Assembly: GCA_964634255.1 (NCBI GenBank)
Contig: CAZWJC010000001.1
Location: 6,116-70,115, forward strand
Source of the DNA: an uncultured Verrucomicrobiota bacterium
GTDB taxonomy: Bacteria; Verrucomicrobiota; Verrucomicrobiia; Limisphaerales; MWDV01
Reading direction: 5' to 3'
Length of the DNA: 64,000 bases
A program made the translations under genes and the position numbers. Each line of letters begins with the position of its first letter. The first letter of the stretch is position 1. Below are positions 1,563-46,031 of this stretch, one piece after another. The notes under the pieces were generated by a model, which did not search any database, was not told the DNA's origin, and worked only from the letters and a program-made list of their open reading frames with translations.

Positions 1563-2672
1563 ATGAACCTGACCATTGCAAAGGAGCAACTCATTAACGG
1601 CCTGCAAGCGGTGCAGAACGTCGTGGGCGCGCGGACGACTCTCCCGATTCTCTCCAATGTTTTGCTCCGAGCCGAGGGAGATCGCTTAGAGCTAACAGCC
1701 ACAGATCTCGATGTGAGTGTTTCCTGCAAGGTTGAGGCGAAAATAACACAGCCCGGCGCTTCTACAGTTCCTGTAAAGAAGCTGTTCGGCATCGTCCGAG
1801 AGCTTAACGGTGCGGAGATAGAGATGGAGGTGGACGAAAAGCACAACTGCAGCGTGCGTGCAGCGGGTTCTTTCTACCGAATAAATGGTCTGAGCGCAGA
1901 CGAGTTTCCGCCACTGCCAAAGATCAACGAGGACAAAAAAGTAACTCTCTCGCAGGAAACGGCTGCTGCGATGTTGAAGAAGACCTCATTTGCGGTGTCC
2001 ACGGACGAGTCGCGGTATGTATTGAACGGAATTTTTGTAAGTCTAAAAGACCACAAGTTGACCATGGTCGCGACCGATGGGCGAAGACTGGCGTTGGTGG
2101 ATGAAGAGGTGGAAGTGCCCGAGAAGAGTCAGGGCGAGTTCATTGTCCCAGCGAAGACGGTAAACGAACTCACTCGATTGCTCCAAGGGAAGGGGACGGT
2201 CGAATTGAAATATGGCGAGAACCAGGCCGCGTTCCTTCTGAATGACGAGAAAGGCGGCTCTGTGGTCATTACCACAAAGCTCATTGAGGGCAATTATCCG
2301 AACTATCGGCAAGTGATTCCTGCTGAAGCGAAGGAGCGAATTCCCCTAGTTCGAGAGGAGTTCCTGCACGCGTTGCGGCGTGCAGAGATCATGACCACGG
2401 ACAAGGCGAACTCCGTGAAACTATCGTTCGGGAAGAACAACTTGGCCATCACTGCAAACTCACCGGAGGTGGGCGAGGCGCGGGAAAGTATCGCAGTCAA
2501 CTACAAGGGCAAGGACATCTCCATTGCCTTTAACCCCCGGTATTTGATCGAGCCACTCAATGCGCTGGCACAAGACGAAGTCTTCTTTGAACTGACGGAT
2601 GAGTTGAGCCCTGGGGTGTTGAAGATCAATGGCCCGTTCCTTTACGTCGTAATGCCCATGAGGTTAAGCTGA
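1563..2672 (+). CDS. dnaN: DNA polymerase III beta sliding clamp
   Basis: 369 aa. The N-terminus MNLTIAKEQLINGLQAVQNVVGARTTLPILSNVLL, the three-domain length and the C-terminal MPMRL are typical of DnaN. Confidence 0.97.
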   Translation: MNLTIAKEQLINGLQAVQNVVGARTTLPILSNVLLRAEGDRLELTATDLDVSVSCKVEAKITQPGASTVPVKKLFGIVRELNGAEIEMEVDEKHNCSVRAAGSFYRINGLSADEFPPLPKINEDKKVTLSQETAAAMLKKTSFAVSTDESRYVLNGIFVSLKDHKLTMVATDGRRLALVDEEVEVPEKSQGEFIVPAKTVNELTRLLQGKGTVELKYGENQAAFLLNDEKGGSVVITTKLIEGNYPNYRQVIPAEAKERIPLVREEFLHALRRAEIMTTDKANSVKLSFGKNNLAITANSPEVGEARESIAVNYKGKDISIAFNPRYLIEPLNALAQDEVFFELTDELSPGVLKINGPFLYVVMPMRLS

Positions 2673-8878: not shown

Positions 8879-11650
8879 CTATTTCTTCCGCAACCGGAAG
8901 AACTGCTGCGGGCCGTCGAAGTTGACAGCGGCAGGGCTGGATTCTGCAGCGGTGGACCACACATTGGGTGATCCAAGGGAGGCAGTCTGTTCCAGGAGAA
9001 AGTCCGCGTTGTCCCAAGCCAGGAACGGCTCACCGCTGAATTCAAGCAGGCATAGCGAGGGTCGGGGTGCAGCTTCCAAGGAAAAGTCGAAGCTGACATC
9101 TGAACTGGTGCTGCTTTCCTGGTGAATCTCCACCGCGACAACGTTCGTGCCGGCTTGGAGCAATGCCGGCGGGACATTGGTGTTGAACCAAGATTTGCCG
9201 TCGTCATCCGCCAAGTCGGCGCGGGTCAGGTAATCCACCGGGCCGTTGGTGAGGTTGCTGCGGAACACTTCCGCGCCGTTGAGATAGACGATTCCGCCGT
9301 CATCGCGCTTGAGGCGAAGCGTGAGGCTGCCCACAGACTCGGGCGCGGTCACTGGGAACGCATGGCGGAAATAGGTCGTGATGATGCGGCCGCTGACGCC
9401 GTTGCTGCGGACGGGCGTGGCTTCGTCGCGCTCACCGTAACCGAGCTCCGCCACGCCATTGCTCCAGCCGGCGTCATTGAAAGTATTGAACCGCCAAGCG
9501 ATGCCGGCGTCTTCGCCCGTGTCGAGATAGCGCCAAAGCGCGCCGGTGGAGACAAGGAAGAAGTTCGTCGTCGCCGACGCACGCACGTAGAAGACGCTGC
9601 TCAGCCCGGTGAGTTCGGCGTTGGTCGGATTCCTCAAACTGACGCGAACCAGACTCAAGTCCGCAGGCGCGGCAGTGGGCTGGATCGTCCGCGAGATCTC
9701 GCCGGGCGGGAAGACGAGCGTTCCCAATTCGAGTATCTGGCTTGGGCCTTCGACCGCGTAGCCCACACTTACCGTCCGGGCCGTGAAGGTGCTCAACCGC
9801 ACGGGCAGGGCGTTAGTGAGTTCGGCGACGTTAAACTGGCTGGCGCGCACCGCGAGGCCGACGCCCACCGGCGCAGTGCCTGACGCAGTTGTATATGTCG
9901 CCAGTCGTGGCGCGTCAGCGTCCGGTTGCCACACATAATTGTCCGGGCACTGGGGTATCGGCGTGGTGAACCAATTGCCGGAGACGGTCATGGCGTTGGT
10001 GCGCCACAGCCAATCCTGCCAGGTGAGTCCCCACATGTCGCGGTAATTGTGGATCAGGATGGAATTGGTGACGCGAAGCGAGCCGGTGTAGGTCCAGTCG
10101 TAGTTGTCGCCGAAGCGCCCGCCGGTCAGGTTACCGATGAGCAGGCAGCCATTCAGGAAGCCCGCGGGACCGTCGTAACCGGCTTCCAAGCCCTGACCGC
10201 AATTAAGGAACACATCATGATGGTGGTTCACGACCTTGCCGTTCGCGGAGAGAGAATTGGCTTCGTGGAAGATGGACTCAAACCAGCAATCCTGGAAGTT
10301 GATCAAGCCCGCGCCGCTGCCCCCGCTATCCACCCCATCGTCCTTCGTCCACCCGAATAGGGTGTTGGTGAAGCCATGAGTGCCGCTCCAGAGGTAGAGG
10401 GCATCATTGTCGCCATCCACGAAGTTTGCGGAATCGTCGGGGCATTCGATGAAGGCGCTGTCGTTGACCGTGAAGCGCGCGCCGGTGAATTCGCCGCCAC
10501 TGGGAGTTCGTTGCATGAGGAATCGGGTGAGCGTAATCTCGCCGCCGTTGACGGAATGGCCTAGTTGGCCGGCCAGCGAAATAGCCGCACAGTCGGTGAG
10601 CGTGATGGTCGGAGTGTTCGTGCAGTAGAACAGCGCTTGCTCCTTACGATGGCTGCTGGGCCGTCCATTGCTGCCAAACCAGTTCGGCTCCGCGCCGCTG
10701 CCGGTAAAAATGGTGTGGGTAGCCTCGATGCGGGACGAGTTGAGTTCCAGCAGAAGACCGCCCCACGACTGTGCTGGGTTGGCTGGGAAGAACACCACGG
10801 GCTGTTCGGACGTGCCGTTTATAGTCATGGTGCCGTCGAGCTTGATCTCCACACGGCTGGCGAGGCGGACGAGCGTTCCCGCACCGATCGTGAGGGAGGA
10901 GCCGGCGGGGATGGTGAGCGTGTTTGTGAGGAGCATCCGCGAATTGGCAGGCCATGCGACACTACCGGTAAGGGAGCCGGAGATGGGAGTCCAAGAGATG
11001 TTGGCTTCGATGACAATGCTGCGGTTCGTCTGCAAACCGCCAAGCGAAACCAGGTAGTCGAGTGGTCCTGATGGATTCGTCGCGCCGAGGAAGCCGGAGC
11101 CGACGCCGCGTTTGATCGCGATGCTTGGGTGTCCGGGAGAGACGAGCGAGCCGTTCGCCCGGAGCGCGTGTCCCGCGTCGTCCATCACCCACGCCACGAC
11201 CGGGATGGCGCAGTCCGTCGGGAACGCCGCGGGTGCGAGCAGACGGAGATGCGCGCCGGCAAATTCGGCGGCGGCGGACGGAAACACCGGCGGCGGAGTC
11301 CAGGGAGGCAAACCGTTCTCCGTGCTCCCGCGCTCCGACGAGCGGACGATGAAGCGAAGAAAAGATGTCTCGACGACGGCGGTCGAGCTGTTCGTGCGCC
11401 CAACCGAGAGTTCGTGGTAACCAACGCTTGTTACGGTCACCGGGCGGCCGACCGCGACGGGGAATCCATCCATCCGGGCCTCGTAGCTCCAGCCGGTGGT
11501 TTGCGGGATCGTGAACGTGGCTTGGTCGGCATAAACCGACTTGTCTGCCACACCGCTGATCGTGATTTGGCCACGGGCGGTGGCGCACAGGCACACCGGC
11601 AGAAGCGAGAAGAGGGCGAGTTGGTTCATGGCACGGGTCATTATCGTCAT
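8879..11650 (-). CDS. large exported protein (signal peptide, beta-helix-like core, jelly-roll module, C-terminal sorting-like domain)
   Basis: 923 aa. Signal-like NQLALFSLLPVCLCATARG. The start ATG overlaps the upstream gene's stop (ATGA); ATG 11629 is an alternative start. It shares a W..Y...W...YFR...DDG.VYLNG...AVE.HQ..S.SSD module with the upstream giant protein. Confidence 0.8.
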   Translation of the reverse strand: MTIMTRAMNQLALFSLLPVCLCATARGQITISGVADKSVYADQATFTIPQTTGWSYEARMDGFPVAVGRPVTVTSVGYHELSVGRTNSSTAVVETSFLRFIVRSSERGSTENGLPPWTPPPVFPSAAAEFAGAHLRLLAPAAFPTDCAIPVVAWVMDDAGHALRANGSLVSPGHPSIAIKRGVGSGFLGATNPSGPLDYLVSLGGLQTNRSIVIEANISWTPISGSLTGSVAWPANSRMLLTNTLTIPAGSSLTIGAGTLVRLASRVEIKLDGTMTINGTSEQPVVFFPANPAQSWGGLLLELNSSRIEATHTIFTGSGAEPNWFGSNGRPSSHRKEQALFYCTNTPTITLTDCAAISLAGQLGHSVNGGEITLTRFLMQRTPSGGEFTGARFTVNDSAFIECPDDSANFVDGDNDALYLWSGTHGFTNTLFGWTKDDGVDSGGSGAGLINFQDCWFESIFHEANSLSANGKVVNHHHDVFLNCGQGLEAGYDGPAGFLNGCLLIGNLTGGRFGDNYDWTYTGSLRVTNSILIHNYRDMWGLTWQDWLWRTNAMTVSGNWFTTPIPQCPDNYVWQPDADAPRLATYTTASGTAPVGVGLAVRASQFNVAELTNALPVRLSTFTARTVSVGYAVEGPSQILELGTLVFPPGEISRTIQPTAAPADLSLVRVSLRNPTNAELTGLSSVFYVRASATTNFFLVSTGALWRYLDTGEDAGIAWRFNTFNDAGWSNGVAELGYGERDEATPVRSNGVSGRIITTYFRHAFPVTAPESVGSLTLRLKRDDGGIVYLNGAEVFRSNLTNGPVDYLTRADLADDDGKSWFNTNVPPALLQAGTNVVAVEIHQESSTSSDVSFDFSLEAAPRPSLCLLEFSGEPFLAWDNADFLLEQTASLGSPNVWSTAAESSPAAVNFDGPQQFFRLRKK

Positions 11651-14600
11651 GGCAGCGCGGGCGTGACGAGGCGGTAAAAGTGACTTGTCGTCGGTGGGGT
11701 TGGATCATGGACAGTCACCGGCCCCGCCGCATCCAGAGGCGCAACATCTGCCAGCCGCTGCCATGTGCCGCCCGAAAGGACCGCCGTCTCCAAGATTGTG
11801 TAACTGCGGCCAGCCACGGCCTCGAACCGGATATCCGTCCCGCCGTAGCTCGGCGTCGCCGAAATCAGGGCCAACACACTTGCAGCGCTCTGAGGGTCAG
11901 TGCCCGCCAGATACTCCAACCAGTTGCTGAAGCTATCCTTGTCCGGATCAAGCGCCGCGTCGTTCACAGAGGTGTTCAGCCCATGTGCCTCTTCCCAAGC
12001 GTCCGGCAAACCATCGCCGTCCGCGTCGCCGCCCGGACTGAATCCGGCCGAGGGCAAGGCCGCAAACCAGTTGGTCGGCTCGTTGCCGTAAGCAGCCGGC
12101 GTCAGACGTTGGAGCGACTGACCAAAGCCGTCGGCATTCGTGGGCCACGGCGACAAATCAGAGTAAACCACCTTCTCCATCAGGACATAGGGCGCGAATC
12201 CAACATCCGGCGGCAACGTCTGCGGATTGTCGGGCGCGTAGAGTTCCAGCGGTTCGCCCGCGTTATCAAGCCGGCCGCTGTAGGGGCCGACCAAGGTGGC
12301 GTTCGTGCCATACGCGGCTCGAAAGGCGGCCACAGCCGCGGGATCGCTCGCCGGATTGAAGCTGACCAACACCATGAATCCGCCCGGCGGGAGGCTGTGG
12401 CTGGTGTTGAAGTCAAAATCCACTCCGCCGCGCAGCCGCCAGCCGTTCGTCGGATGGTAAGCATCGTACAAGGGCACCGTGGCGAAGCCCAAATTGTGCA
12501 ATTCAACAAACTCGTCGCGGGCGCTGTCGTTTGTACCCAGCACGAGCGGGTGATACATGATTTCCGAGATGACGATCGGACCGACGTGCGGTGCGGCGTT
12601 GGGCGCGCCCGCACCAGCACGGAAAACCGGGAGCAGATTGGTGGGGCTCGCGGCCGTGACACTGGTGCCGAAGGTGTGCGTTTGCATCGCCGCGAAGTCC
12701 ACACCCACACTTGTCGGAACGCGCCCGAAGGACACGCCGTTGAACTGCGGGCCAAACTTCACGTGACCACGGAAGCCGGTAAGTTGACCGTTGGCGTCGG
12801 TCGCGCTCAGCCAGGCGGAATCGCCATAGGCCGAACTGAACTCGAAGCTGCTGCCCACTCCGGGTTCAGGGTTGAACTGGTATTCATAGAGGACCGCGAA
12901 GCCCCGTGGCGACAGAATCGTGCCGGCCGGGATGCGGAATTTGCGCAAGTCATCCTTGTCGTCGCTGAGCCACCAGCCGCTGACGTCCAGCGGGGCGTCG
13001 CTCGCGTTGAAAAGTTCGAGGGCGTCTTCCAAAGGCGGGTCTGTGTGGGAGAGGATTTCGTTGATGAAGACGTTGGTGAGCACCAGCCAGTTCGCTGCGC
13101 CGGGCGAAGACGCGGAGAAGAAAGTCCGGTTGGCCGCACCGTCCGGGAAGCGGCCTTCGGAGACACCGGTGGTCTGCGCGCCGAACGTTACGCTGTCAAT
13201 GGCGGGGGCGGTGCCGGGCGGGAACAAGCCGACCGCTTCTCCGCCAGCGTCGAGCGTGAACCCGACATGGTCCGTACCCTGCGTGGTGTCGTTGTCGGCG
13301 ACGAACTTCAAGAATCCGTTCGTGGCCGTGCCGATGAAGGAAAGCGGCGGGATGAGATGCTTCGTGCGGTTGTTGAGCTTGTCGGTGAGATAAAGGCCGC
13401 CGAGCGCCGCGGGTTGCAGGCTCGGATTGTAGAGCTCAAACCAATCCGGTCCGCCGGCGACACTGGCCGCCCATTCGTTGATGCGTATCTCCGCGGCGCT
13501 GCCCAGTTCGGCGGCGATGTTCGCGGACTCGGGCGTGGGCAGGGCGAGAGTCCAAGACCCGGACGCATCTGGCAGCCGGGCGAGTGAAAAGCCGTCCGCT
13601 TGCGGACCGAACACGAGAGCATCCAGCAAGGACGCGGTGGCGTTGTAGAGATAGACCGCATCCCCAGTGCTGCTCAATCCGAAGCCGGTGTTGAGCGGAG
13701 TGACGACGTTCGTGGACGGGGGCGCAGTAGCGTCAAACTTCACGACGAGCCGCGTCCCAGCCGCGAGCGTGACGCCCGTGGGGAACACCCAGCGATGTGA
13801 CGCGGGCGTGTCGTCGGTGAGGCTCATGCCGGCCAGGTTGATTGGGTTGGGCGAAGGGTTGAACAGCTCCACCCAGTCCGTGAGCGTGCCATCGCTGTTG
13901 GTTTGAGCACCTGGCGCAGCAAGGATTTCGCTGAGCACAAGCGAAGTCGTGATGAAGTTGGTGATCGAGCGCGTGGCCTCGAGCGACATGCCCCAGACAA
14001 CGTCGGAGCTGTTTGAATTTCCCTGATGAACTTCCACCGCGATGATGTTGGTGCCGACATGAAAGCGGCTGGCCGGAATGGTGAAGGGTTCGTCCACGTC
14101 GGCGTCGGTGTTTGCGCCAATCGCGCTGCTGCCGAAGGAGAGGTTGGTGATCGTGCCCCCACCCATGCGCGGACGTGAGAACTCGACGCCGTTGATGTAG
14201 ATCACGGCGCAGTCATCCAGACGCATCTTCGCGTTGATGGTATGGGCGGAAAGGTCGTTCGACACCACGAGCGGGCAGCGAAAGTAATAAGCGTGGCCGG
14301 GTTCCAAGCCCGGCGGGGGAGTGTTAGGGGCGAGCAGAACGGTGTTGCGGAGCGTGGAAATCCACGAGGAGGTTTCATACGCCAGCAAGCCTCGCCCGCT
14401 CTGCCATGCGCTGTCATTGTAGTTCGTCGCCATCCAACTGAAGCCGTCGAGATTGTTCGACTGGTTGAAGCGCCACACGTTGGTCATCGGCATCAAGGCG
14501 AGGGTTTCGGTGGTCACGCTTGTGGAGTGGCCGGGATTGCCCATGCCGGGCGTCGGCGTGGCGAAGAAGGCCAGCGTGGCGGTGCCATTCGGAGTGCGGC

Positions 14601-36927: not shown

Positions 36928-37332
36928 GTGCTGGACGTTCCCGGCCAGTGGACGTCACCCCGGCATCCCGTTCCGGGTGCGCAGTTGCTCCGCCGCCTTC
37001 CGAATACCCGCCGCAATGTCCGGCATCTGAAAATCCTCGAGGAGCGGCCGGGTAACGCGCTGGGGAACGTCGCGGCGGCGAAGGCGTTGCTGCGCTGGAG
37101 CGCTACGGAACGCGAGGCGTGGCTGGACGCGGTGATCAACGATCCGCTGCTGCCGGGCCGGATTCTGCCGTCGGATTATCTGGGGCAACGAGAGCGGTGG
37201 CCGTCTGCCAAGGCCGACGGCGGGTGGAAGTGCTCCGGGCCGCCAACCGGCAACTCCGCACTTTCAACGCTGCAAAAACCGGCGCAGGCCGCGCGTGACG
37301 CAGGACAACCTTTTGTTGCATATGTAACATGA
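36928..37332 (+). CDS. hypothetical ORF, possibly a gene remnant at the edge of an insertion
   Basis: Very GC-rich third positions over about 37050-37300, but an AT-rich last nine codons. No family recognised. A competing GC3-rich frame exists on the minus strand (36955-37188). Confidence 0.3.
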   Translation: MLDVPGQWTSPRHPVPGAQLLRRLPNTRRNVRHLKILEERPGNALGNVAAAKALLRWSATEREAWLDAVINDPLLPGRILPSDYLGQRERWPSAKADGGWKCSGPPTGNSALSTLQKPAQAARDAGQPFVAYVT

Positions 37333-37358: not shown

Positions 37359-38960
37359 TCAGACTCCGCCGCTGAGATTGTCGAGGCGAGTAGCCAGCCA
37401 ACGAATGCCACCTGCATTCAGCCGGTGCGGGTAGACGCACAAGAAGCACAGGAGAAAAATCGGGAATTCCTTAATCAACCTCGGCAAGTCGTTACCACGC
37501 GATTCGAACGCCGCTTTCTTAAGGGTGTCCCAGTTCTGCCTTCGGATGACCTGTCTTTCCCAATCCGTTCCTTGCGAAGACCGCCAAAGGTAAAACTGCC
37601 ATCTGTGAGCAGGAACAAACGATGAGAAGGCAATCTTTGTAATGCTCGGCCAGAGGAGCTTGAGTTGCTGCTTCAGATTTGTCCGCGCTGCCAAGTGGAG
37701 CAGGGCCTCCAGTGTGTGGGAATGGCCGGCAAACGTGTCGTCGAGCGGTTCATCGCTTAGGCCAGTAAGATGAGGCAGGATTTCGTCCACAGAGTAGTAT
37801 GGGTTCGCTAGGAAGGATTTCCCTCGCGGCTTGTTCAAAGTTGTGATTGCTGAGACTAACTGTAGTAACATGCCATCGCTACGAATGCTGCCGTCAATCC
37901 GCGACTGGTAGAAGTGCCAAGCCAAAAACTGAGGGGCTGCGTATTCACCCCAAAGAACCATTTTGCCCGAGTTTCGCAGACAAAACTCTCTGATGAATGT
38001 ATCCGATGCCTCAGACAGACCTTGCGCATCTCGCCAGAGTGCGAGCAGGCTCATCAAGCTGACGAGGTATGTAATTCTCGGCCGTTGCACAAGATGGTCG
38101 GTCAGCGGATCGCCTTCGACTAAATGCTTTCGCTCGCGAAGCTCTTCACACAATCGTCCTAACGCATTCAGCATCGACATCAACGCAATGTCGAATTCGC
38201 CCTTCCAGACCTTTGGAGGCAAATTCCATCGCTCCGCTGCCGCAAGGATGCAGGCCGCGCATATCGTCCATGCTTCAAATTCGGCAGCGTGGTTGTCGGC
38301 ATTCGAGAAGGACGAAGTGGCAAGCGCATTGAGAATCGCCGCGTTGGCAATCGCGCGCCCAGCCTCCTGCACTGTGGGCTTTTGTTTCCCGTGCAAGCTC
38401 AAGGCGCTTTCGAGAAGTGGAGCGAGTTTGTCCTTCGGCAAGGTCTCGCGCCCCGTCATCAGGAACATCTCAATGAGGGTTTTGGTTTGCGGAATGTCGG
38501 GCGGCCAGAAATTCGTCTGGAGCTTCTTAAACATCCGGAAGAGCTCTCCCATCAGGATGGTCCGGATGCGGTGTCTCGGGTGAGCGCGATTGAAATCGTC
38601 AATGGCTCGGATGACCTCTTCCTCAAGTTCCCCGTTTACAACCAAGTATGAGCGGTGTGCTTTTGTGCTTGAGACGGAGGGGTGAACCACTTTTCCAAGT
38701 GCGAGGTCAACAATCTGCTTGCTGATTTCATCTCGCCACTTTTTCAGTCCGATTTTTCCACCATGCGCGCCCTTCAACTGATAGGCACAGGGAATCCCGT
38801 CCGGCGCAATGGTGATTACATCCTTGCCCATCTCCATGCCACAATGGCGAGAGAGATGGAGGACCGTGTGGCCTTCCAATGACAAGGCGTGGCAGAAGGG
38901 TAATTGAAACGTGCGCTCGTTTGCCTTAGCCAACCAGTTTTCGACGACTCTCTCGATCAC
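37359..38960 (-). CDS. unknown-function protein, 533 aa, N-terminal Mrr/PD-(D/E)xK-like motif (second gene of the low-GC pair)
   Basis: GTG start at 38960 preceded by AAAGGAG with an 8-nt spacer. Long ORF in visibly lower-GC DNA. N-terminus E15...GKD47VITIAPDGIPCAYQ61LK63 resembles restriction-endonuclease-like cores. The remainder is helical with no NTPase motif. Confidence 0.7.
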   Translation of the reverse strand: MIERVVENWLAKANERTFQLPFCHALSLEGHTVLHLSRHCGMEMGKDVITIAPDGIPCAYQLKGAHGGKIGLKKWRDEISKQIVDLALGKVVHPSVSSTKAHRSYLVVNGELEEEVIRAIDDFNRAHPRHRIRTILMGELFRMFKKLQTNFWPPDIPQTKTLIEMFLMTGRETLPKDKLAPLLESALSLHGKQKPTVQEAGRAIANAAILNALATSSFSNADNHAAEFEAWTICAACILAAAERWNLPPKVWKGEFDIALMSMLNALGRLCEELRERKHLVEGDPLTDHLVQRPRITYLVSLMSLLALWRDAQGLSEASDTFIREFCLRNSGKMVLWGEYAAPQFLAWHFYQSRIDGSIRSDGMLLQLVSAITTLNKPRGKSFLANPYYSVDEILPHLTGLSDEPLDDTFAGHSHTLEALLHLAARTNLKQQLKLLWPSITKIAFSSFVPAHRWQFYLWRSSQGTDWERQVIRRQNWDTLKKAAFESRGNDLPRLIKEFPIFLLCFLCVYPHRLNAGGIRWLATRLDNLSGGV

Positions 38961-39516
38961 GCCAATCGCTCCTTTTCTTGCTGATCATCTCCTCCACTTT
39001 CTTGCGAAGGGTCGGGTCAGCCTCAATTTGGTCCACAACCTTCTTAAAAGTCTCAAACGCTTCCTTTCCGCAAACGATTGACGGCATGTATGGGTTGCCT
39101 TCGTCGTCAAACTCCGTCTGAATTTGCTCGAACAGTTGGATGAACACCTCTGGCGTTAGCGGTTTACCGCCAAGATTAACCGAGTTGCCGACGCTGCTGA
39201 CGACTTGATCGACCTTCTCAAACATAGCCTTGCTCTGCTGGAAGTGCATTTGGTCTGCCTGCTGCTGAACCATGCGAGCGACATCTTCAGTTTTTGCGTT
39301 TTCGAGTTCCTTGACGTTGAGCTTCATTTCGCTCTTAAACGTCATGAATTTTGAGACATCGACTGAACCATCTTCACGCGCAATGCCCATCCTGTTTCCT
39401 TCAAAGAACCGACGCTTCGGAATTTGGGAGAAGAATCCACGGTTTGGCATCTTAGAGAACGACCGCAGCAAGAGCTTGCGGAGCATTTCTTTACTTTCAG
39501 GATAATCAGGAAGCAT
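38926..39516 (-). CDS. unknown-function protein, 196 aa (first gene of the low-GC pair)
   Basis: ATG at 39516; overlaps the downstream gene by 35 nt. The protein is charged and helical, with no TM segment and no motif I recognise. No clear SD upstream, so the start is uncertain. Confidence 0.6.
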   Translation of the reverse strand: MLPDYPESKEMLRKLLLRSFSKMPNRGFFSQIPKRRFFEGNRMGIAREDGSVDVSKFMTFKSEMKLNVKELENAKTEDVARMVQQQADQMHFQQSKAMFEKVDQVVSSVGNSVNLGGKPLTPEVFIQLFEQIQTEFDDEGNPYMPSIVCGKEAFETFKKVVDQIEADPTLRKKVEEMISKKRSDWRDRESRRKLVG

Positions 39517-39531
39517 TTCGCAATGCGGATT

Positions 39532-39780
39532 CTATTGACCGCTGAAAAGCTTTTCCACCTTCGCCTTCACGCTTTCATCCATCTTGATGAGCGGCGGCCA
39601 GGGGCGTTTGAAACCTTCGCCCGGAATCTTCTTCGTCGCGTCAATGCGGAGTTTGCTGCCGCTGGCGATTTCGCTGGTGGCGTGGTCGAGCACGTCGGAC
39701 GGGCCTTTGTTGAAGATGCTGTCGCGTTGCGGATCGGTGTTGGGGCAGAGGCGAAAGAAAACTTCGCTGGTGTTGTACAT
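39532..39780 (-). pseudogene. C-terminal fragment of a UbiD-family decarboxylase (5' part missing)
   Basis: The 82 codons DPQRDSIFNKGPSDVLDHATSEIASGSKLRIDATKKIPGEGFKRPWPPLIKMD match the extreme C-terminus of UbiD-family enzymes (E. coli UbiD: DPARD...[25 protein letters not shown]...W..PI..D). The roughly 400 upstream codons are absent and replaced by a repeat and a TA cassette. Confidence 0.6.
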
Positions 39781-39847
39781 GTTCTCTTCCTGGCTGCCAT
39801 GCGTCGAATCCTCTCTCCGCCGCCGCCCCAAATCCAGCCCGGAATTG
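39781..39847. repeat. 67-bp direct repeat, copy 1
   Basis: gttctcttcctggctgccatgcgtcgaatcctctctccgccgccgccccaaatccagcccggaattg matches 40798-40864 at 64 of 67 positions, in the same orientation. Confidence 0.9.
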
Positions 39848-39863: not shown

Positions 39864-40160
39864 TTAACTCAGTCTCCGCGCCCAGTAGCCCGGTCTGCGG
39901 CTCAAGTGCGCCACCGCCACAATCCAGATGCGGTCAGGCTGGATTTCATAGACAACCCTGAAGGGAAACCGTTTGGTCGGGAAGCTCCGTGTGCCGTGGG
40001 AACCTAACTGACCCAATTCGGGCTGTGCCCGGACGAACTCCACGACCGCCTCGACTTCCGTCAGGAACTCGTCTCCCAACCCGGCCCTACGCCCGTCGTA
40101 AAACAGGGCCGAGTCAACGAGTTCTCGGGCGGCGAGCCGATGATAGACCACGCGCATCAT
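39864..40160 (-). CDS. type II toxin, RelE/ParE family
   Basis: 98 aa; A..EL..A..FY...AGLGDEF...V......P..G......R.F...RFPF.VVYEI..D.I.IVAVAH..R.PGYW matches the ParE/RelE plasmid-stabilisation fold family. Confidence 0.85.
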   Translation of the reverse strand: MMRVVYHRLAARELVDSALFYDGRRAGLGDEFLTEVEAVVEFVRAQPELGQLGSHGTRSFPTKRFPFRVVYEIQPDRIWIVAVAHLSRRPGYWARRLS

Positions 40161-40386
40161 GGAGCGTTCGACGAGCCTCGGTCATTGCTTCCTCCGCCGG
40201 TATTCCTTCGACACGCCCAGCGCGAATGTCCTTCACCCGCGCCCCGATTTCATCATCCCAAGCCGCTTTAATATCCGGCGTGGCAAAGCCTTCGACGCTG
40301 GCGACCAATTCCTCGGCAAGTTCAATCCGACGTCGGGCCGGCCATTTCATCACCTGCTTCGCGAGCGTTTCCTGAGCGGTCGTCAT
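40114..40386 (-). CDS. putative addiction-module antitoxin (TIGR02574-like)
   Basis: Start ATG 40386. W(P)ARRRIELAEELVASV....PDIKAAWDDEIGARVKDIRAGRVEGIPAEE is the pattern of the addiction-module-component family found upstream of ParE/RelE toxins. It overlaps the toxin start by 47 nt. Confidence 0.75.
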   Translation of the reverse strand: MTTAQETLAKQVMKWPARRRIELAEELVASVEGFATPDIKAAWDDEIGARVKDIRAGRVEGIPAEEAMTEARRTLHDARGLSSARRPRTR

Positions 40387-40447
40387 GGGTGGATTGTCGA
40401 GCAGGGTTGGAGGTTTGGCAAGGGGGCAGCGAATCCCGCGCATTCGT

Positions 40448-40702
40448 TCACGGCTTGCCTTGCGTGCGCTTGGCGATGAGTTGACGGACCCGCCCGGCGT
40501 CTTGCTTCGTCCAAGGAGTGGCCGGCCCCGTGAAGCCCTTCTCGATCTCCTCCCGCAGCCAGGTCAGGCGTTGCTGTCGTTCATCATCCGCTTCCAGCCG
40601 GCGCAGACCGTCCCGGACGACTTCTTCGGCGGAGCCGTACGCCCCACTCTTGACCTTGCGGGAGATGAAGCGCTCATGACGCGGTGTGAGAACGATGTTC
40701 AT
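40448..40702 (-). CDS. parD: type II antitoxin, ParD family (no adjacent cognate toxin)
   Basis: 84 aa; MNIVLTP.HERFI..KVKSGAYGSAEEVVRDGLRRLE......L.WLREEIEKG is the ParD/COG3609 ribbon-helix-helix pattern. Confidence 0.85.
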   Translation of the reverse strand: MNIVLTPRHERFISRKVKSGAYGSAEEVVRDGLRRLEADDERQQRLTWLREEIEKGFTGPATPWTKQDAGRVRQLIAKRTQGKP

Positions 40703-40797
40703 ACGGCAAAGGTGTTGCCACCCAGCCGATGGGTTGTCAATCCGGTTCAGCGATTTCCTCCGGGGTCATCCCGCGGTCCTCGCTACCTGTTTCGGGT

Positions 40798-40864
40798 GTT
40801 CTCTTCCTGGCGGCCATGCGTCGCATCCTCTTTCCGCCGCCGCCCCAAATCCAGCCCGGAATTG
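40798..40864. repeat. 67-bp direct repeat, copy 2
   Basis: 64/67 identity to 39781-39847. Lies upstream of parD and is immediately followed by a REP-like unit. Confidence 0.9.
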
Positions 40865-40880
40865 GCCGCGCCGCTTAGCC

Positions 40881-41000
40881 TCACGCGAAGCGTCTTGGAC
40901 TGCGGCCGCCCTCTGCCGCTTTCACCTCGCAACGCACACCGCAGAACCGACCGCCACGCCAAAGCGCCGGAGGGCCGGCGCACTCCAAAACGCTGGTGCG
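40881..41000. repeat. REP-like unit, left flank of the RAYT gene
   Basis: The conserved ends tcacgcgaagcgtcttggactgcggc... and ...aaagcgccggagggccggcgcactccaaaacgctggtgcg are shared with 41706-41838. Contains the hairpin gcgccgg-aggg-ccggcgc. Confidence 0.7.
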
Positions 41001-41124
41001 TTGAACTGAGTACTGACTGGCATATCAGTGCCCAGTGGCCAATACGGCGTGGAACCATTCTCTCCATCAGGTGAGTCTCAACTTCTGGCTTCCCACGCAG
41101 GCCTGCGCGCGGCATTGTCGCGTT

Positions 41125-41703
41125 ATGCCAGCGCCCAAGACACCTTGGCCTCACGCACCAACACACCGACTCTCCGATCGCGGCACTTACTTCGTCACCG
41201 CCTCCACTTATCGAAAGGCGCACCATTTTCGCGGCGCAGCACGACTGCGCGTTCTGCACCGTGGCTTACTGACCGTGGCGCGACAGTTCGCCTGGCAACT
41301 GGAGGCTTGGGCTGTTTTCTCCAATCACTACCACTTTGTCGGCCATTCGCCTGCGGATGCGCCTGATGCTTCCAGTTTGAGTGCCATGCTCAGCGTGTTG
41401 CACGTGAAGACTGCCGAGTGGGTCAACAAGCTGGACACCACTCCGGGCCGGCAGGTCTGGTTCAACTACCGTGAGACCAAACTCACCCATCAGCGCTCGT
41501 ATCTGGCGCGGTTGAACTACGTGCATCAGAACGCTGTGAAACATGGCTTGGTGCCAGTGGCATGCCAATACCCGTGGTGCTCGGCGGCGTGGTTTGAACG
41601 CGTTGCTTCGCCCGCCATGGTGAACTCCATCTACCGGTTCAAGATAGATCACGTGTCGATCGAGGATGACTTCGCGCCGGATTCTGACTGGCAACCGAGG
41701 TGA
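41125..41703 (+). CDS. REP-associated tyrosine transposase (RAYT; IS200/IS605 TnpA-like Y1 HuH enzyme)
   Basis: In-frame ATG 41125. HuH motif in VFSNHYHFVG and catalytic Tyr region LNYVHQNAVKHGLV. Flanked on both sides by related hairpin repeats. Confidence 0.85.
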   Translation: MPAPKTPWPHAPTHRLSDRGTYFVTASTYRKAHHFRGAARLRVLHRGLLTVARQFAWQLEAWAVFSNHYHFVGHSPADAPDASSLSAMLSVLHVKTAEWVNKLDTTPGRQVWFNYRETKLTHQRSYLARLNYVHQNAVKHGLVPVACQYPWCSAAWFERVASPAMVNSIYRFKIDHVSIEDDFAPDSDWQPR

Positions 41704-41705
41704 AC

Positions 41706-41838
41706 TCACGCGAAGCGTCTCGGAGTGCGGCAGCCCCCTGCCGCTTTCGGCCTGGCGCGCGTGGTCACTGAATCGCGCACCTTCGCCGCCTCACCTTAAA
41801 GCGCCGGAGGACCGGCGCACTCCACGACGCTGGCGCGC
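41706..41838. repeat. REP-like unit, right flank of the RAYT gene
   Basis: tcacgcgaagcgtctcggagtgcggcagccccctgccgctttc ... aaagcgccggaggaccggcgcactccacgacgctggcgcg. Hairpins gcggcag-cccc-ctgccgc and gcgccgg-agga-ccggcgc. Same orientation as the left unit. Confidence 0.7.
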
Positions 41839-44056: not shown

Positions 44057-45472
44057 CTAACCCATGCGGCTGCGAACGAAAACGAAATATGCCAGCAACA
44101 CGACCGCCAGCAGATAGGTGAGCCAGCCCACGCCACGCCCCCGGCCGGCCAGCAGCTTGATCAGCGGATACGCGATGAACCCCAGCGCCAGCCCGTCGGC
44201 GATGGAGAATGACAGGGGGATGCCGATCAACACCAGGAAGGCGGGCACTGCTTCGGTCGCGTCGTTCCATTCGATCCGGGCGACGTTTTGCATCATCAGC
44301 GCGCCGACGATCACCAACGCCGGGGCGGTGATGGGTGGGTAGCTGCCGACCATCGCAATCACCGGCCCGAAGAACAACGCAAGCAGGAACAACAACGCCA
44401 CCACCAATCCGGTCAACCCTGTGCGCCCGCCTTGTTCCACGCCGGCGGCGCTCTCGATGAAGCTCGTCACCGTGCTCGTCCCCATGGCCGCGCCCGCCAC
44501 CGTGCCGACCGCGTCCGACACCATCGCTTGCCGGGCACGCGGCAGGCGGTTGTCGCGCATGAACCCAGCCTGCTCGCACACGCCGATGAGTGTGCCGATG
44601 GCATCGAACATCAGCATGAATAGGAACACAAAGATGAAGGGGAGCATCTTCGGCGAAACGGCGCCGGCGAGGTCCATTTGCAGGAACGTCGGGGCGAGCG
44701 ACGGCGGCGCGGCAACCAGCGCGGAGGCAAATTGAAACTGCGTGGCCAGCTTGGATTCGGCGATGAGCGGCGACTGGGTGAAGGCCTCCGGCAGGTTCAG
44801 CACGGCTGCTTTGAAAACCACTGCGGCCAGCGTGGCCGCAACCATGCCCCACAGGATCGAGCCGCGCACCCGGCGCGCGTGTAGGACCGCGGTCGTCATC
44901 AGGCCGAAAAAGAAAATCAGCAGGTCCGGCGAGGCGAAGTGCGGGTTGAGCTTCACCGCCGTGCCTGGGTCTTTCAAGATGAGTCCCGCGTTCTGCAGGC
45001 CGATGAAGGCAATGAACAGCCCGATGCCGCCGGCGATGCCATGTTTGAGGCTTGGGCTGACCGCATTGAAAACCAATTCGCGCACGCCCACGAGAGACAA
45101 GATCAGGAATAGCAGGCCCGAGATGAAGACCGCTCCCAGCGCCACCTGCCAGGGATTTGTGAAACCCGCGGCTGCGGCCGCCGGTACGGCGGAGAAGACA
45201 AAGAAGAAGTTCTCCCCCATGCCGGGCGCCTGGGCGATGGGATAGCGCGCGAGCAGCGCCATCAGGACGGTGGCCAGCGCGGCCGAAAGGCACGTTGCGG
45301 CCATCACCGCGCCGAAATCCATGCCCGTTTCCCGGCCGAACATCTTCCCGGAAAGCACCGCGGGCTGAACCACGATGATGTAGGCCATCGTCAGGAAAGT
45401 GGTGACTCCCGCCAGTGCCTCAGTGCGCACGGTGGTGCCGTTTTCCGCGAGACGAAAGAAGCGATCTAACAT
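44057..45472 (-). CDS. NCS2/AzgA-family purine (adenine/guanine/hypoxanthine) permease
   Basis: 471 aa; FRL.ENGTTVRTE..AG.TTFLTMAYII.VQP..L N-terminus and about 12 hydrophobic helices. Lies 17 nt upstream of ade in an operon-like arrangement. Confidence 0.9.
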   Translation of the reverse strand: MLDRFFRLAENGTTVRTEALAGVTTFLTMAYIIVVQPAVLSGKMFGRETGMDFGAVMAATCLSAALATVLMALLARYPIAQAPGMGENFFFVFSAVPAAAAAGFTNPWQVALGAVFISGLLFLILSLVGVRELVFNAVSPSLKHGIAGGIGLFIAFIGLQNAGLILKDPGTAVKLNPHFASPDLLIFFFGLMTTAVLHARRVRGSILWGMVAATLAAVVFKAAVLNLPEAFTQSPLIAESKLATQFQFASALVAAPPSLAPTFLQMDLAGAVSPKMLPFIFVFLFMLMFDAIGTLIGVCEQAGFMRDNRLPRARQAMVSDAVGTVAGAAMGTSTVTSFIESAAGVEQGGRTGLTGLVVALLFLLALFFGPVIAMVGSYPPITAPALVIVGALMMQNVARIEWNDATEAVPAFLVLIGIPLSFSIADGLALGFIAYPLIKLLAGRGRGVGWLTYLLAVVLLAYFVFVRSRMG

Positions 45473-45601
45473 AGTCGGCGAAAGCGCGGCAATTGTTTAT
45501 TCTGTCGGTGACTGCTGTTTGGAGACGTTTAAGAACTCACGAACGTGAATCAAGTCGAGCGGTCAAGCGATTCTGTAATCCGACGCGTCGCTATGACTTG
45601 G

Positions 45602-45976
45602 TCATAGACGGTGCGTACTCCACCGCGCCGAACCTGAGCCCCGTGGCAACCGAATCTCCCAACATGACCCGTTGGTAGTTACGGTCAGGATTTCCAGATC
45701 CTGCTCAGCCTGTGACAACGCTCCTGCGTGGAACAAGTTTGTCATGTAAGCAGCTCTCTCAGTGAGATCATACTCGAATGAACCTGTGCCGGTGTTTGCG
45801 TCCAGGTCGTTGCGTTCCTCGATAGCCCGAGCTGATGCTGGCAACATTGGTGGCAGCCACCCTCGATCAAACGCCCGTCGCGACTTCGCCTCCTCCAAAG
45901 TTGCGAAATGAGTCGTGACCACATCCCGGCACCCCGTTAATACCAGCGCAGCGAATATGGCAAGAGTGCGTTGCAT
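45602..45976 (-). CDS. hypothetical lipoprotein
   Basis: 124 aa; signal plus lipobox MQRTLAIFAALVLTGC. No family recognised. Confidence 0.5.
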   Translation of the reverse strand: MQRTLAIFAALVLTGCRDVVTTHFATLEEAKSRRAFDRGWLPPMLPASARAIEERNDLDANTGTGSFEYDLTERAAYMTNLFHAGALSQAEQDLEILTVTTNGSCWEIRLPRGSGSARWSTHRL

Positions 45977-46031
45977 GCTGCCTCGAACGATTAGGCGTCC
46001 ATGTCCGAACCGGCACTCGTAATTGGCGCGA

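Follow-up and report, generated by a model that had tools for sequence, protein, structure and literature searches.

The subject of this analysis is a pair of overlapping genes located at positions 37359 to 39516 (minus strand) of a 64,000-nucleotide stretch of DNA from an uncultured Verrucomicrobiota bacterium; this whole stretch is referred to below as the window. The pair encodes a 196-aa protein, here called the partner, and a 533-aa protein, here called the large protein. It is an operon that is conserved as a unit and is horizontally mobile. On balance, we favor the view that this self-contained mobile two-gene module is a candidate immune system against foreign DNA, one that carries no name in the databases searched. 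The main reasons are the conservation and mobility of the unit, the predicted nuclease-like domain of the large protein with its invariant putative catalytic residues, and the kinds of genes found beside the pair in other genomes.

The partner gene (38926-39516, minus strand) starts with ATG, and the large gene (37359-38960, minus strand) starts with GTG at 38958-38960. As an earlier sequence-only reading of this stretch had claimed, both open reading frames (ORFs) lie on the same strand and share 35 nt. According to the ORF list, this overlap (38926-38960, minus strand) is out of frame, and it is therefore dual-coding: the same DNA encodes the conserved C-terminus of the partner, EWRDRESRRKLVG, and the likewise conserved first helix of the large protein, MIERVxENWL. 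A Shine-Dalgarno-like AAAGGAG, also mentioned in that reading, was found at 38969-38975 (minus strand), within the partner coding sequence and 8 nt before the GTG of the large gene. Since the last 35 nt of the partner gene overlap the start of the large gene, both products are expected to be made together. Downstream, about 65 nt past the stop codon of the large gene, a terminator-like hairpin followed by a T-run can be observed at 37282-37294 (minus strand); it comes from a consensus scan only, which returned 10 sites in the region where 5.2 were expected.

The drop in base composition noticed in the sequence-only reading was confirmed by windowed analysis. The G+C content (GC) is 0.49-0.56 between about 37250 and 39750 (500-nt windows) and 0.60-0.71 on both sides, and the pair has a GC of 0.525 compared with 0.614 for the rest of the window. 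The GC of third codon positions is 0.635 in the large gene (z = -1.7) and 0.584 in the small gene (z = -2.6), compared with 0.73 +/- 0.06 in 19 other long ORFs of the window. No inverted repeats were found at or around the cassette in the window.

The extent of the mobile unit was deduced from the closest relative, the locus L001, which shares DNA homology with the window at 85% identity over positions 37365-39531 (minus strand), the apparent transferred unit. The homology begins 15 nt 5' of the partner ATG, at the base directly after the TAG stop codon of an adjoining UbiD_C fragment, and stops 6 nt short of the last base of the large gene's stop codon; the DNA outside these borders is not shared. 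In 64 of 66 related loci, too, the GC of the pair lies below that of its flanks, with a mean deficit of 8.8 points and a largest one of 29 points. The neighborhoods are otherwise mutually unrelated, and clustering of 984 neighbor ORFs yielded a single recurrent family. Upstream of the partner gene no conserved DNA was detected beyond a weak Shine-Dalgarno region, and no conserved operator was found. In two loci from Joint Genome Institute metagenomes, which belong to one lineage (L005:7439-9617 and L006:4081-6259), the pair is situated within the heat-shock gene cluster, between dnaK (HSP70) and dnaJ, downstream of an Hsp20 gene. A mobile cassette would not ordinarily be expected at this location.

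The sequence-only reading had suggested asking whether the partner is conserved beside the large gene. Using a profile hidden Markov model (HMM) of the partner, we found it immediately before the large gene in practically all loci for which upstream DNA is available. Of 78 pairs from other genomes, 74 have an overlap of exactly 35 nt. In these 78 pairs the large gene starts with GTG (43), ATG (24) or TTG (11), and in most loci a purine-rich, AAAGGAGG-like Shine-Dalgarno stretch is present 8-10 nt before its start. Across 59 pairs, the pairwise sequence identities of one protein correlate with those of the other (r = 0.84, Mantel p = 0.001), with the partner evolving faster (mean identity of 32% versus 41% for the large protein). 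In two metagenomic entries, P0199 (361 aa) and P0230 (245 aa), the partner seems to be fused in frame to the N-terminal domain of the large protein. Both are devoid of the WRDRESRRKLVG tail, and their junctions are …KKWRKL-MLSKLIESWL… and …KQKEIG-MLERLIENWL…, respectively. They could be either natural fusions or frameshift errors. The 35-nt overlap might set the stoichiometry of the two products or permit an occasional +1 frameshift fusion, as these two entries hint.

The N-terminal domain of the large protein comprises residues 1-146 (38523-38960, minus strand) and is predicted to have a restriction-endonuclease-like topology of the PD-(D/E)xK, Mrr type. An AlphaFold2 model of the large protein was built from 111 sequences, with a predicted local distance difference test score (pLDDT) of 91.3 and a predicted TM-score (pTM) of 0.91. 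The order of secondary-structure elements assigned by DSSP was helix 2-12, helix 15-28, strand 32-36, strand 48-51, strand 57-63, helix 72-88, strand 103-108, helix 114-126 and strand 132-135, and in this predicted structure residues 1-146 follow the order of a restriction-endonuclease-like core. The layout of E15, G45-K46-D47 and Q61-L62-K63 pointed out in the sequence-only reading is present. The codons of the putative catalytic motif, D47-(x13)-Q61-x-K63, occupy positions 38772-38822 (minus strand). In the model, D47 is placed at the start of strand 48-51, and Q61 and K63 are located within strand 57-63. All three residues are invariant both in a set of 41 and in the set of 111 homologues, which argues for a role in catalysis, putative as it is. 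In the 111 sequences H35, H39, E43, G45 and Q82 are invariant as well, H93 is a further invariant residue near the motif, and E15 is nearly invariant.

The claim of an Mrr-like N-terminus was upheld as regards the invariant triad and the strand order, and profile and structure comparisons lean the same way; the link itself is of moderate strength. The family HMM thresholds of Mrr_cat and Mrr_cat_2 were missed, and in a scan at E <= 10 one of 21 N-terminal domains touched Mrr_cat, with E = 0.24. Profile-profile alignment by HHalign against the Mrr_cat_2 domains of neighboring Type ISP enzymes gave a probability of 40% (P = 3e-4, 72 columns), and with deeper profiles on both sides 53% (P = 1.3e-4, 85 columns), the register being kept. 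The alignment places GKD47 and Q61-L-K63 on the D and QCK of the template. The real comparisons scored 30.5-30.9, compared with 21.3 for the reversed profile; none of 40 column shuffles exceeded 17.2, and no other segment of the Type ISP enzymes exceeded 22.4.

Structural searches pointed in the same direction. The best Foldseek matches in BFVD, which contains predicted viral structures, were phage proteins annotated as "Restriction endonuclease" and [quoted passage not shown], with E = 0.012-0.17, a Foldseek probability of 1.00 and a root-mean-square deviation of 2.6-4.1 Å over 105-143 columns; at lower ranks, with E up to about 2, giant-virus Rpb5, VRR-NUC and MmcB-like proteins were obtained. 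No match reached E <= 0.001, either among the viral models or in the PDB. When the large protein was searched against the PDB, the best E was 0.24, with a TM-score of about 0.2, and the sole nuclease was MUS81-EME1, a weak match at rank 13. The helical bulk of the protein probably masks the N-terminal domain in this whole-model search. Taken together, the N-terminal domain likely adopts the Mrr-type PD-(D/E)xK fold with an intact catalytic triad.

The remainder of the large protein, residues 147-533 (37362-38522, minus strand), forms a C-terminal domain of about 390 aa. As had been anticipated, it is mostly helical in the confident AlphaFold2 model, the exception being a small sheet at residues 444-469. 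Its fold is unmatched, as no structural neighbors were returned by Foldseek searches of the PDB. Conservation extends well into this domain: its many invariant polar residues include E227, E229, E273, D288, R295, W337-G338-E339, N376, Y388-Y389, E418, H422, R426, K430, H512-R513 and R520. No Walker A motif and no transmembrane-like segment were found in the large protein or in the partner, no NTPase motif was found anywhere in the pair, and no fold that reads modified bases (SRA, YTH or winged helix) was detected in the large protein.

The partner is mostly helical and free of transmembrane segments, in agreement with the sequence-only reading. Its AlphaFold2 model is of moderate confidence (pLDDT 79, pTM 0.58) and shows a helical protein with one β-hairpin and a long central helix. 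The 26 homologues collected are 195-209 aa long with full coverage. For the partner, the median isoelectric point is 5.6. Conservation is seen at both ends: in the N-terminal MLPDYPE the residues L2, P3, D4 and P6 are invariant, and at the C-terminus the stretch encoded by the overlap is retained. On the contig of the window, public annotation gives the partner as P0123, a protein of only 154 aa that starts at M43. Because the homologues are conserved over their full length, including MLPDYPE, we regard the start of the 196-aa protein as real, and P0123 looks truncated. The partner has no family match and no structural neighbor in Foldseek. It was also considered as a capsid protein of the HK97 fold, on account of a weak NCBIfam match with E = 0.002; this match was seen in only 2 of 27 family members and was rejected as noise.

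The sequence-only reading had stated that neither protein could be placed in a family, and this held up, as profile and structure searches led to no housekeeping family and to no named defense family. Scans with Pfam, NCBIfam, PHROGs and PADLOC left the large protein without a match, and for the partner they returned no more than noise below threshold; with PADLOC-DB v2.0.0, where that reading had expected no match, zero families were obtained at E <= 1 for both proteins. The distant Rhodococcus pair aside, public names given to members of either protein family read "hypothetical protein". Sequence searches of the PDB with single sequences, with the profile of the N-terminal domain and with a divergent N-terminal domain from Rhodococcus (see below) returned chance-level matches or none.

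Although unnamed, the family is large. A word-indexed search identified 183 full-length homologues of the large protein, of about 530-560 aa and with 39-55% identity; no Pfam domains were found among them and none bears a functional name, those that are named being "hypothetical protein". This search missed the large protein of L001, which is 88.6% identical and surfaced through the partner gene. An exhaustive search with the profile of the N-terminal domain yielded 895 clusters (at 50% identity) at E <= 1e-3, of which 646 remained at E <= 1e-10. Other domain architectures were sought in this way; nearly all of the best 150 matches have the same architecture, with about 540 aa and the domain beginning at residue 1 or very close to it, the exceptions being the two fusion reads described above and P0186, while shorter entries resemble fragments.

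Scanning one genome per species, we located 73 loci in more than 15 phyla. They belong to Poribacteria (about 20), Planctomycetota, Acidobacteriota, Chloroflexota, Bacteroidota and relatives, Lentisphaerota, Verrucomicrobiota, Bacillota (Neomoorella, Desulfovirgula), Cyanobacteria (Pleurocapsa), several Desulfobacterota-type lineages, and Alpha- and Betaproteobacteria (Roseomonas, Martelella, Neorhizobium, Massilia); one of the loci is archaeal and comes from a metagenome-assembled genome (MAG) of Bathyarchaeia. No member of the family was found in 50,697 phage records, and 1 of 72,556 plasmid records contains it. No match was found in E. coli genomes by a search at the DNA level only, which distant protein relatives could escape. 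Two assemblies contain two copies of the pair each, namely a Poribacteria MAG (L019 and L021) and a MAG of an uncultured bacterium (L020 and L026).

The plasmid record is that of Rhodococcus qingshengii plasmid pdjl-6-4 (NZ_CP096567.1, positions 10597-12685; WP_054801557.1 and WP_064075238.1), which carries a very distant pair, L081. Its layout is the same as in the window, with proteins of 195 aa and 511 aa, a 35-nt overlap and a GKD...QSK motif. The NCBI annotation names the two proteins "hypothetical protein" and, for the 511-aa protein, "restriction endonuclease". The N-terminal domain matches the family profile with an HHalign probability of 99.6%, and the partner matches the partner HMM with E = 6e-12. 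The Rhodococcus pair differs in its host phylum (Actinomycetota) and its plasmid location, in the sequence of the N-terminal domain (34% identity), and in the C-terminal domain, which can be aligned only at HMM positions 286-335. Its neighbors are an OLD-type ATP-dependent endonuclease, an exonuclease-domain protein, an AAA ATPase fragment and a 1167-aa DEAD/DEAH helicase, and the surroundings look like a plasmid defense island. The Rhodococcus relative was also tried as a sequence bridge to Mrr_cat_2 and was rejected, the HHalign probability being 0.5%; what points to a restriction endonuclease in its case is solely the NCBI annotation.

The genes found beside the pair in related loci were analyzed with Pfam and PADLOC families. 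Large ORFs located directly upstream on the same strand encode Type ISP enzymes, an Eco57I/MmeI-like enzyme, a Type I HsdR and a CHAT-AAA-TPR protein, and in one locus BsoBI is found together with a methylase. In many loci, position -1 is taken by a restriction-modification enzyme of Type ISP, Type I or Type IIG. Type ISP enzymes combine in one polypeptide an Mrr-like nuclease, an SF2 helicase, a coupler, a methyltransferase and target-recognition domains. The Type ISP neighbors are composed of Mrr_cat_2, ResIII, a coupler, N6_Mtase and Type_ISP_C, and none of these domains was matched by Pfam in the pair. The cluster of Type ISP or helicase-type enzymes (including the Type I HsdR of L018) is present in 14 of 76 loci, in 8 of them at position -1. 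Among the 126 proteins at positions -1 and -2, Pfam matches comprised ResIII (12), Type_ISP_C (8), Mrr_cat_2 (7), Eco57I (4), Cap15 (3), integrase (2), BrxL (1) and BsoBI (1), and PADLOC matches comprised REase_MTase_IIG (10), two-transmembrane effectors of cyclic oligonucleotide-based antiphage signaling systems (CBASS; 3), DpdE (2) and HmaA (2). Among the 127 proteins at positions +1 and +2, the corresponding matches were GmrSD (3) and Schlafen/AlbA_2 (3) for Pfam, and PtuA (2), SspE (2), HEC-06 (2) and HmaA/B for PADLOC.

As a control, an equal-sized set of ORFs located 6-10 kb away in the same loci was used, in which each family was matched once at most. At E <= 1e-10 the two proximal sets matched 207 and 250 PADLOC families, and the distal control 76. 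Measured against this control, genes of restriction-modification (R-M) systems, CBASS, Septu, Ssp, Hma and GmrSD are overrepresented among the neighbors. The sequence-only reading had proposed looking for such an enrichment, and by this crude count of family hits known defense genes are indeed more common beside the pair, in line with the individual cases. In two loci an ORF of about 910 aa lies two genes upstream of the pair (L063:5920-8655 and L026:1839-4571) and groups with Type ISP enzymes by BLAST; the one in L063 has no Pfam match at E <= 0.001. This ORF may be a degraded or divergent R-M gene.

If the module is an immune system, the following mechanism can be envisaged. The 533-aa protein would be the effector and its N-terminal 146 residues an Mrr-type nuclease, in which D47, Q61 and K63 would form the metal-binding and catalytic core, with E15 on the first helices. 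The helical domain of about 390 aa would serve as a regulatory or sensing part. The 196-aa partner, made from the same mRNA, would bind the large protein and either silence the nuclease or supply the recognition of a target or trigger. Infection or incoming foreign DNA would set the complex to cleave DNA. The nuclease activity, the protein-protein interaction, the trigger and the protection against phages or plasmids are what we infer. The fuller proposal, a two-component immune system of about 650 or more clusters in more than 15 phyla, in which sensing parts of novel fold (the 390-aa domain and the partner) control an Mrr-type nuclease, is put forward tentatively, as we give it somewhat less than an even chance.

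Comparison with characterized systems reveals partial likenesses, the closest being to nuclease-based defense modules for the putative mode of action and to Mrr-type domains for the putative catalytic domain. The Mrr_cat (PF04471) and Mrr_cat_2 (PF13156) domains, known from the Type IV enzyme Mrr and from the nuclease head of Type ISP enzymes of the LlaGI/LlaBIII type, share with the pair an α-β-β-β-α-β order, a D-(x13)-Q-x-K motif on core strands two and three, and N-terminal helices that carry an acidic residue. In contrast to Mrr-family enzymes, the domain of the large protein is situated at the extreme N-terminus, is fused to an unmatched 390-aa helical domain and is always accompanied by a 196-aa partner. 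Moreover, the helicase, methyltransferase and winged-helix reader of Mrr and Type ISP enzymes are missing, and H35, H39, E43, Q82 and H93 are additional invariants. Two-gene nuclease-based systems of defense islands, such as Hachiman (HamA/HamB), Shedu and Gabija, are similar in having a nuclease effector of the PD-(D/E)xK or a related type, a compact operon with a partner, horizontal spread, low GC and defense neighbors. The pair differs from them in that its partner is small, helical and devoid of a helicase or ATPase, in that no PADLOC v2 model matches it, and in that it has no NTPase motif. To our knowledge, a fixed 35-nt gene overlap has not been described for systems of the Hachiman, Shedu and Gabija type.

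The organization of the pair also resembles that of type II toxin-antitoxin operons such as ParDE, in which a small upstream gene overlaps the effector gene. This raises the alternative that the pair is an addiction module, with the large nuclease as the toxin and the small coupled partner as the antitoxin, which would persist by stabilizing itself or the DNA that carries it. The tightly overlapping two-gene operon, in which the small gene comes first, the co-evolution of both proteins with a faster-evolving partner (32% versus 41% identity), the co-inheritance and horizontal spread in the absence of conserved regulatory DNA, and the ParE/antitoxin/ParD genes clustered beside the pair in the window are all in keeping with such a module. 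We nevertheless consider it unlikely. A 533-aa effector with an additional domain of 390 aa is far larger than typical type II toxins, and both proteins are unrelated in sequence to toxin-antitoxin families. Neither an antitoxin fold (ribbon-helix-helix, helix-turn-helix, AbrB or Phd/YefM), hence no antitoxin DNA-binding domain in the partner, nor a known toxin was found in either protein by the same tools that detect ParE, ParD and Unstab_antitox in the window. The absence of a conserved upstream operator speaks against the alternative as well, and so does the occurrence of the family in only one plasmid of 72,556, even though addiction modules are common on plasmids. It is important to mention that this alternative overlaps with abortive-infection defense, and the two are not mutually exclusive. 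A special case of the defense reading would be a stand-alone, modification-dependent restriction enzyme similar to Type IV, whose helical domain recognizes a foreign modification on the DNA that the Mrr-like domain cuts and whose partner is an accessory or specificity factor. The Mrr-type D...QxK motif with its matches to Mrr folds, the lack of a methyltransferase in the cassette and the frequent proximity of R-M systems and GmrSD-type enzymes would fit this model, which we rate as rather improbable all the same. In characterized Mrr-type enzymes the reader domain is N-terminal and the nuclease C-terminal. The order is reversed in the large protein, where the nuclease-like part (residues 1-146) comes before the unmatched helical part, and this is not the layout of Mrr Type IV enzymes; furthermore, no SRA, YTH or winged-helix reader and no NTPase motif were detected in it.

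Two further explanations assign the pair a role beside, or outside, immunity. The presence of Type ISP or helicase clusters on the same strand and with short spacers in 14 of 76 loci, 8 of which have them at position -1, together with Type I HsdR, Eco57I-like or BsoBI enzymes directly upstream in other loci, would be expected if the pair were an accessory that modulates or complements adjacent R-M enzymes, especially those of Type ISP. Most loci, including the window and L001, have no adjoining R-M gene, the types of R-M system vary between loci, the transferred unit consists of two genes only, and 13 of the 14 loci with the Type ISP cluster are from Poribacteria or unclassified MAGs and perhaps represent the arrangement of one lineage; we therefore regard an accessory function as very improbable. 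As PD-(D/E)xK domains act in repair, recombination and transposition besides restriction, the pair could alternatively be a nuclease of a mobile element with its helper (of the homing or transposition type), a sporadically distributed repair or recombination factor, or a protein whose N-terminal domain binds DNA and is inactive. The precise borders of the unit, the variety of insertion sites, including the dnaK-dnaJ interval, and the integrase and transposase genes that occasionally adjoin it would agree with such a non-immune role. To this we assign a slight probability, since the pair travels without terminal repeats, conserved flanks, an integrase or a transposase, a locus usually has a single copy (two MAG assemblies have two loci each), the family is absent from the phage records and nearly absent from plasmids, the D/Q/K triad is invariant, and the neighbor enrichment favors defense.

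Several observations weigh against the reading of the pair as an immune system. The link to Mrr is moderate, with HMM matches below threshold, HHalign probabilities of 40-53%, Foldseek E values of 0.01-0.2 and no significant match in the PDB, and the roles assigned to the partner and to the helical domain are guesses. The enrichment of neighbors is a crude count of family hits that ignores phylogeny, and because the 14 Type ISP loci are nearly all from Poribacteria, they may share one ancestral arrangement. Many loci are found in housekeeping surroundings, for example dnaK/dnaJ (L005 and L006) or an aminotransferase beside L001. In the window itself, the neighbors of the pair are toxin-antitoxin genes and elements of repetitive extragenic palindromes (REP) with a REP-associated tyrosine transposase (RAYT), and not R-M or classical defense genes.

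Should the immune reading be true, a big, phylogenetically broad and unannotated family would join the bacterial defenses, mainly from lineages such as Poribacteria, Planctomycetota, Acidobacteriota and Chloroflexota that are missed by screens centered on E. coli. It would also bring two folds without solved relatives and a compact nuclease. The fixed 35-nt dual-coding overlap is a clean case for the study of how an overlap constrains and couples two proteins over long evolutionary distances. The family HMMs from this analysis can be used in defense annotation tools, and the D47/Q61/K63 triad offers ready mutants for tests.

The region upstream of the pair contains several other features. The sequence-only reading had described a truncated UbiD fragment and a ParD/antitoxin/ParE cassette on the same strand, and Pfam found both there on the minus strand: a UbiD_C fragment (39532-39831), ParE (39864-40160), Unstab_antitox (40114-40443) and ParD (40448-40702). 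The UbiD fragment corresponds to the last approximately 50 residues only of a UbiD-type decarboxylase (profile positions 78-127 of 127). The ParE/Unstab_antitox/ParD block is bracketed by a direct repeat (39780-39847 and 40797-40864, 96% identity), which is 68 nt long and not 67 nt as previously given. The first codons of the ORF containing UbiD_C come from one copy of this repeat, and this suggests that the toxin-antitoxin block entered a ubiD-like gene together with the repeat element.

Further upstream, a RAYT-like ORF with HYHF and a YVHQNAVKHGLV-type tyrosine motif is located at 41035-41703. It has no Pfam match at E <= 0.1, and it lies on the plus strand, contrary to the earlier description, which had placed it on the strand of the pair. 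REP-like repeat pairs of about 40 nt with 90-91% identity (40880-40923 with 41705-41748, and 40961-41000 with 41798-41837) flank this ORF on both sides. Elsewhere in the window, low GC was also observed in a 369-aa ORF at 1563-2672 (plus strand, GC 0.529) and in a dip to 0.55-0.57 at about 45250-46000; these two spots may represent further acquired DNA.

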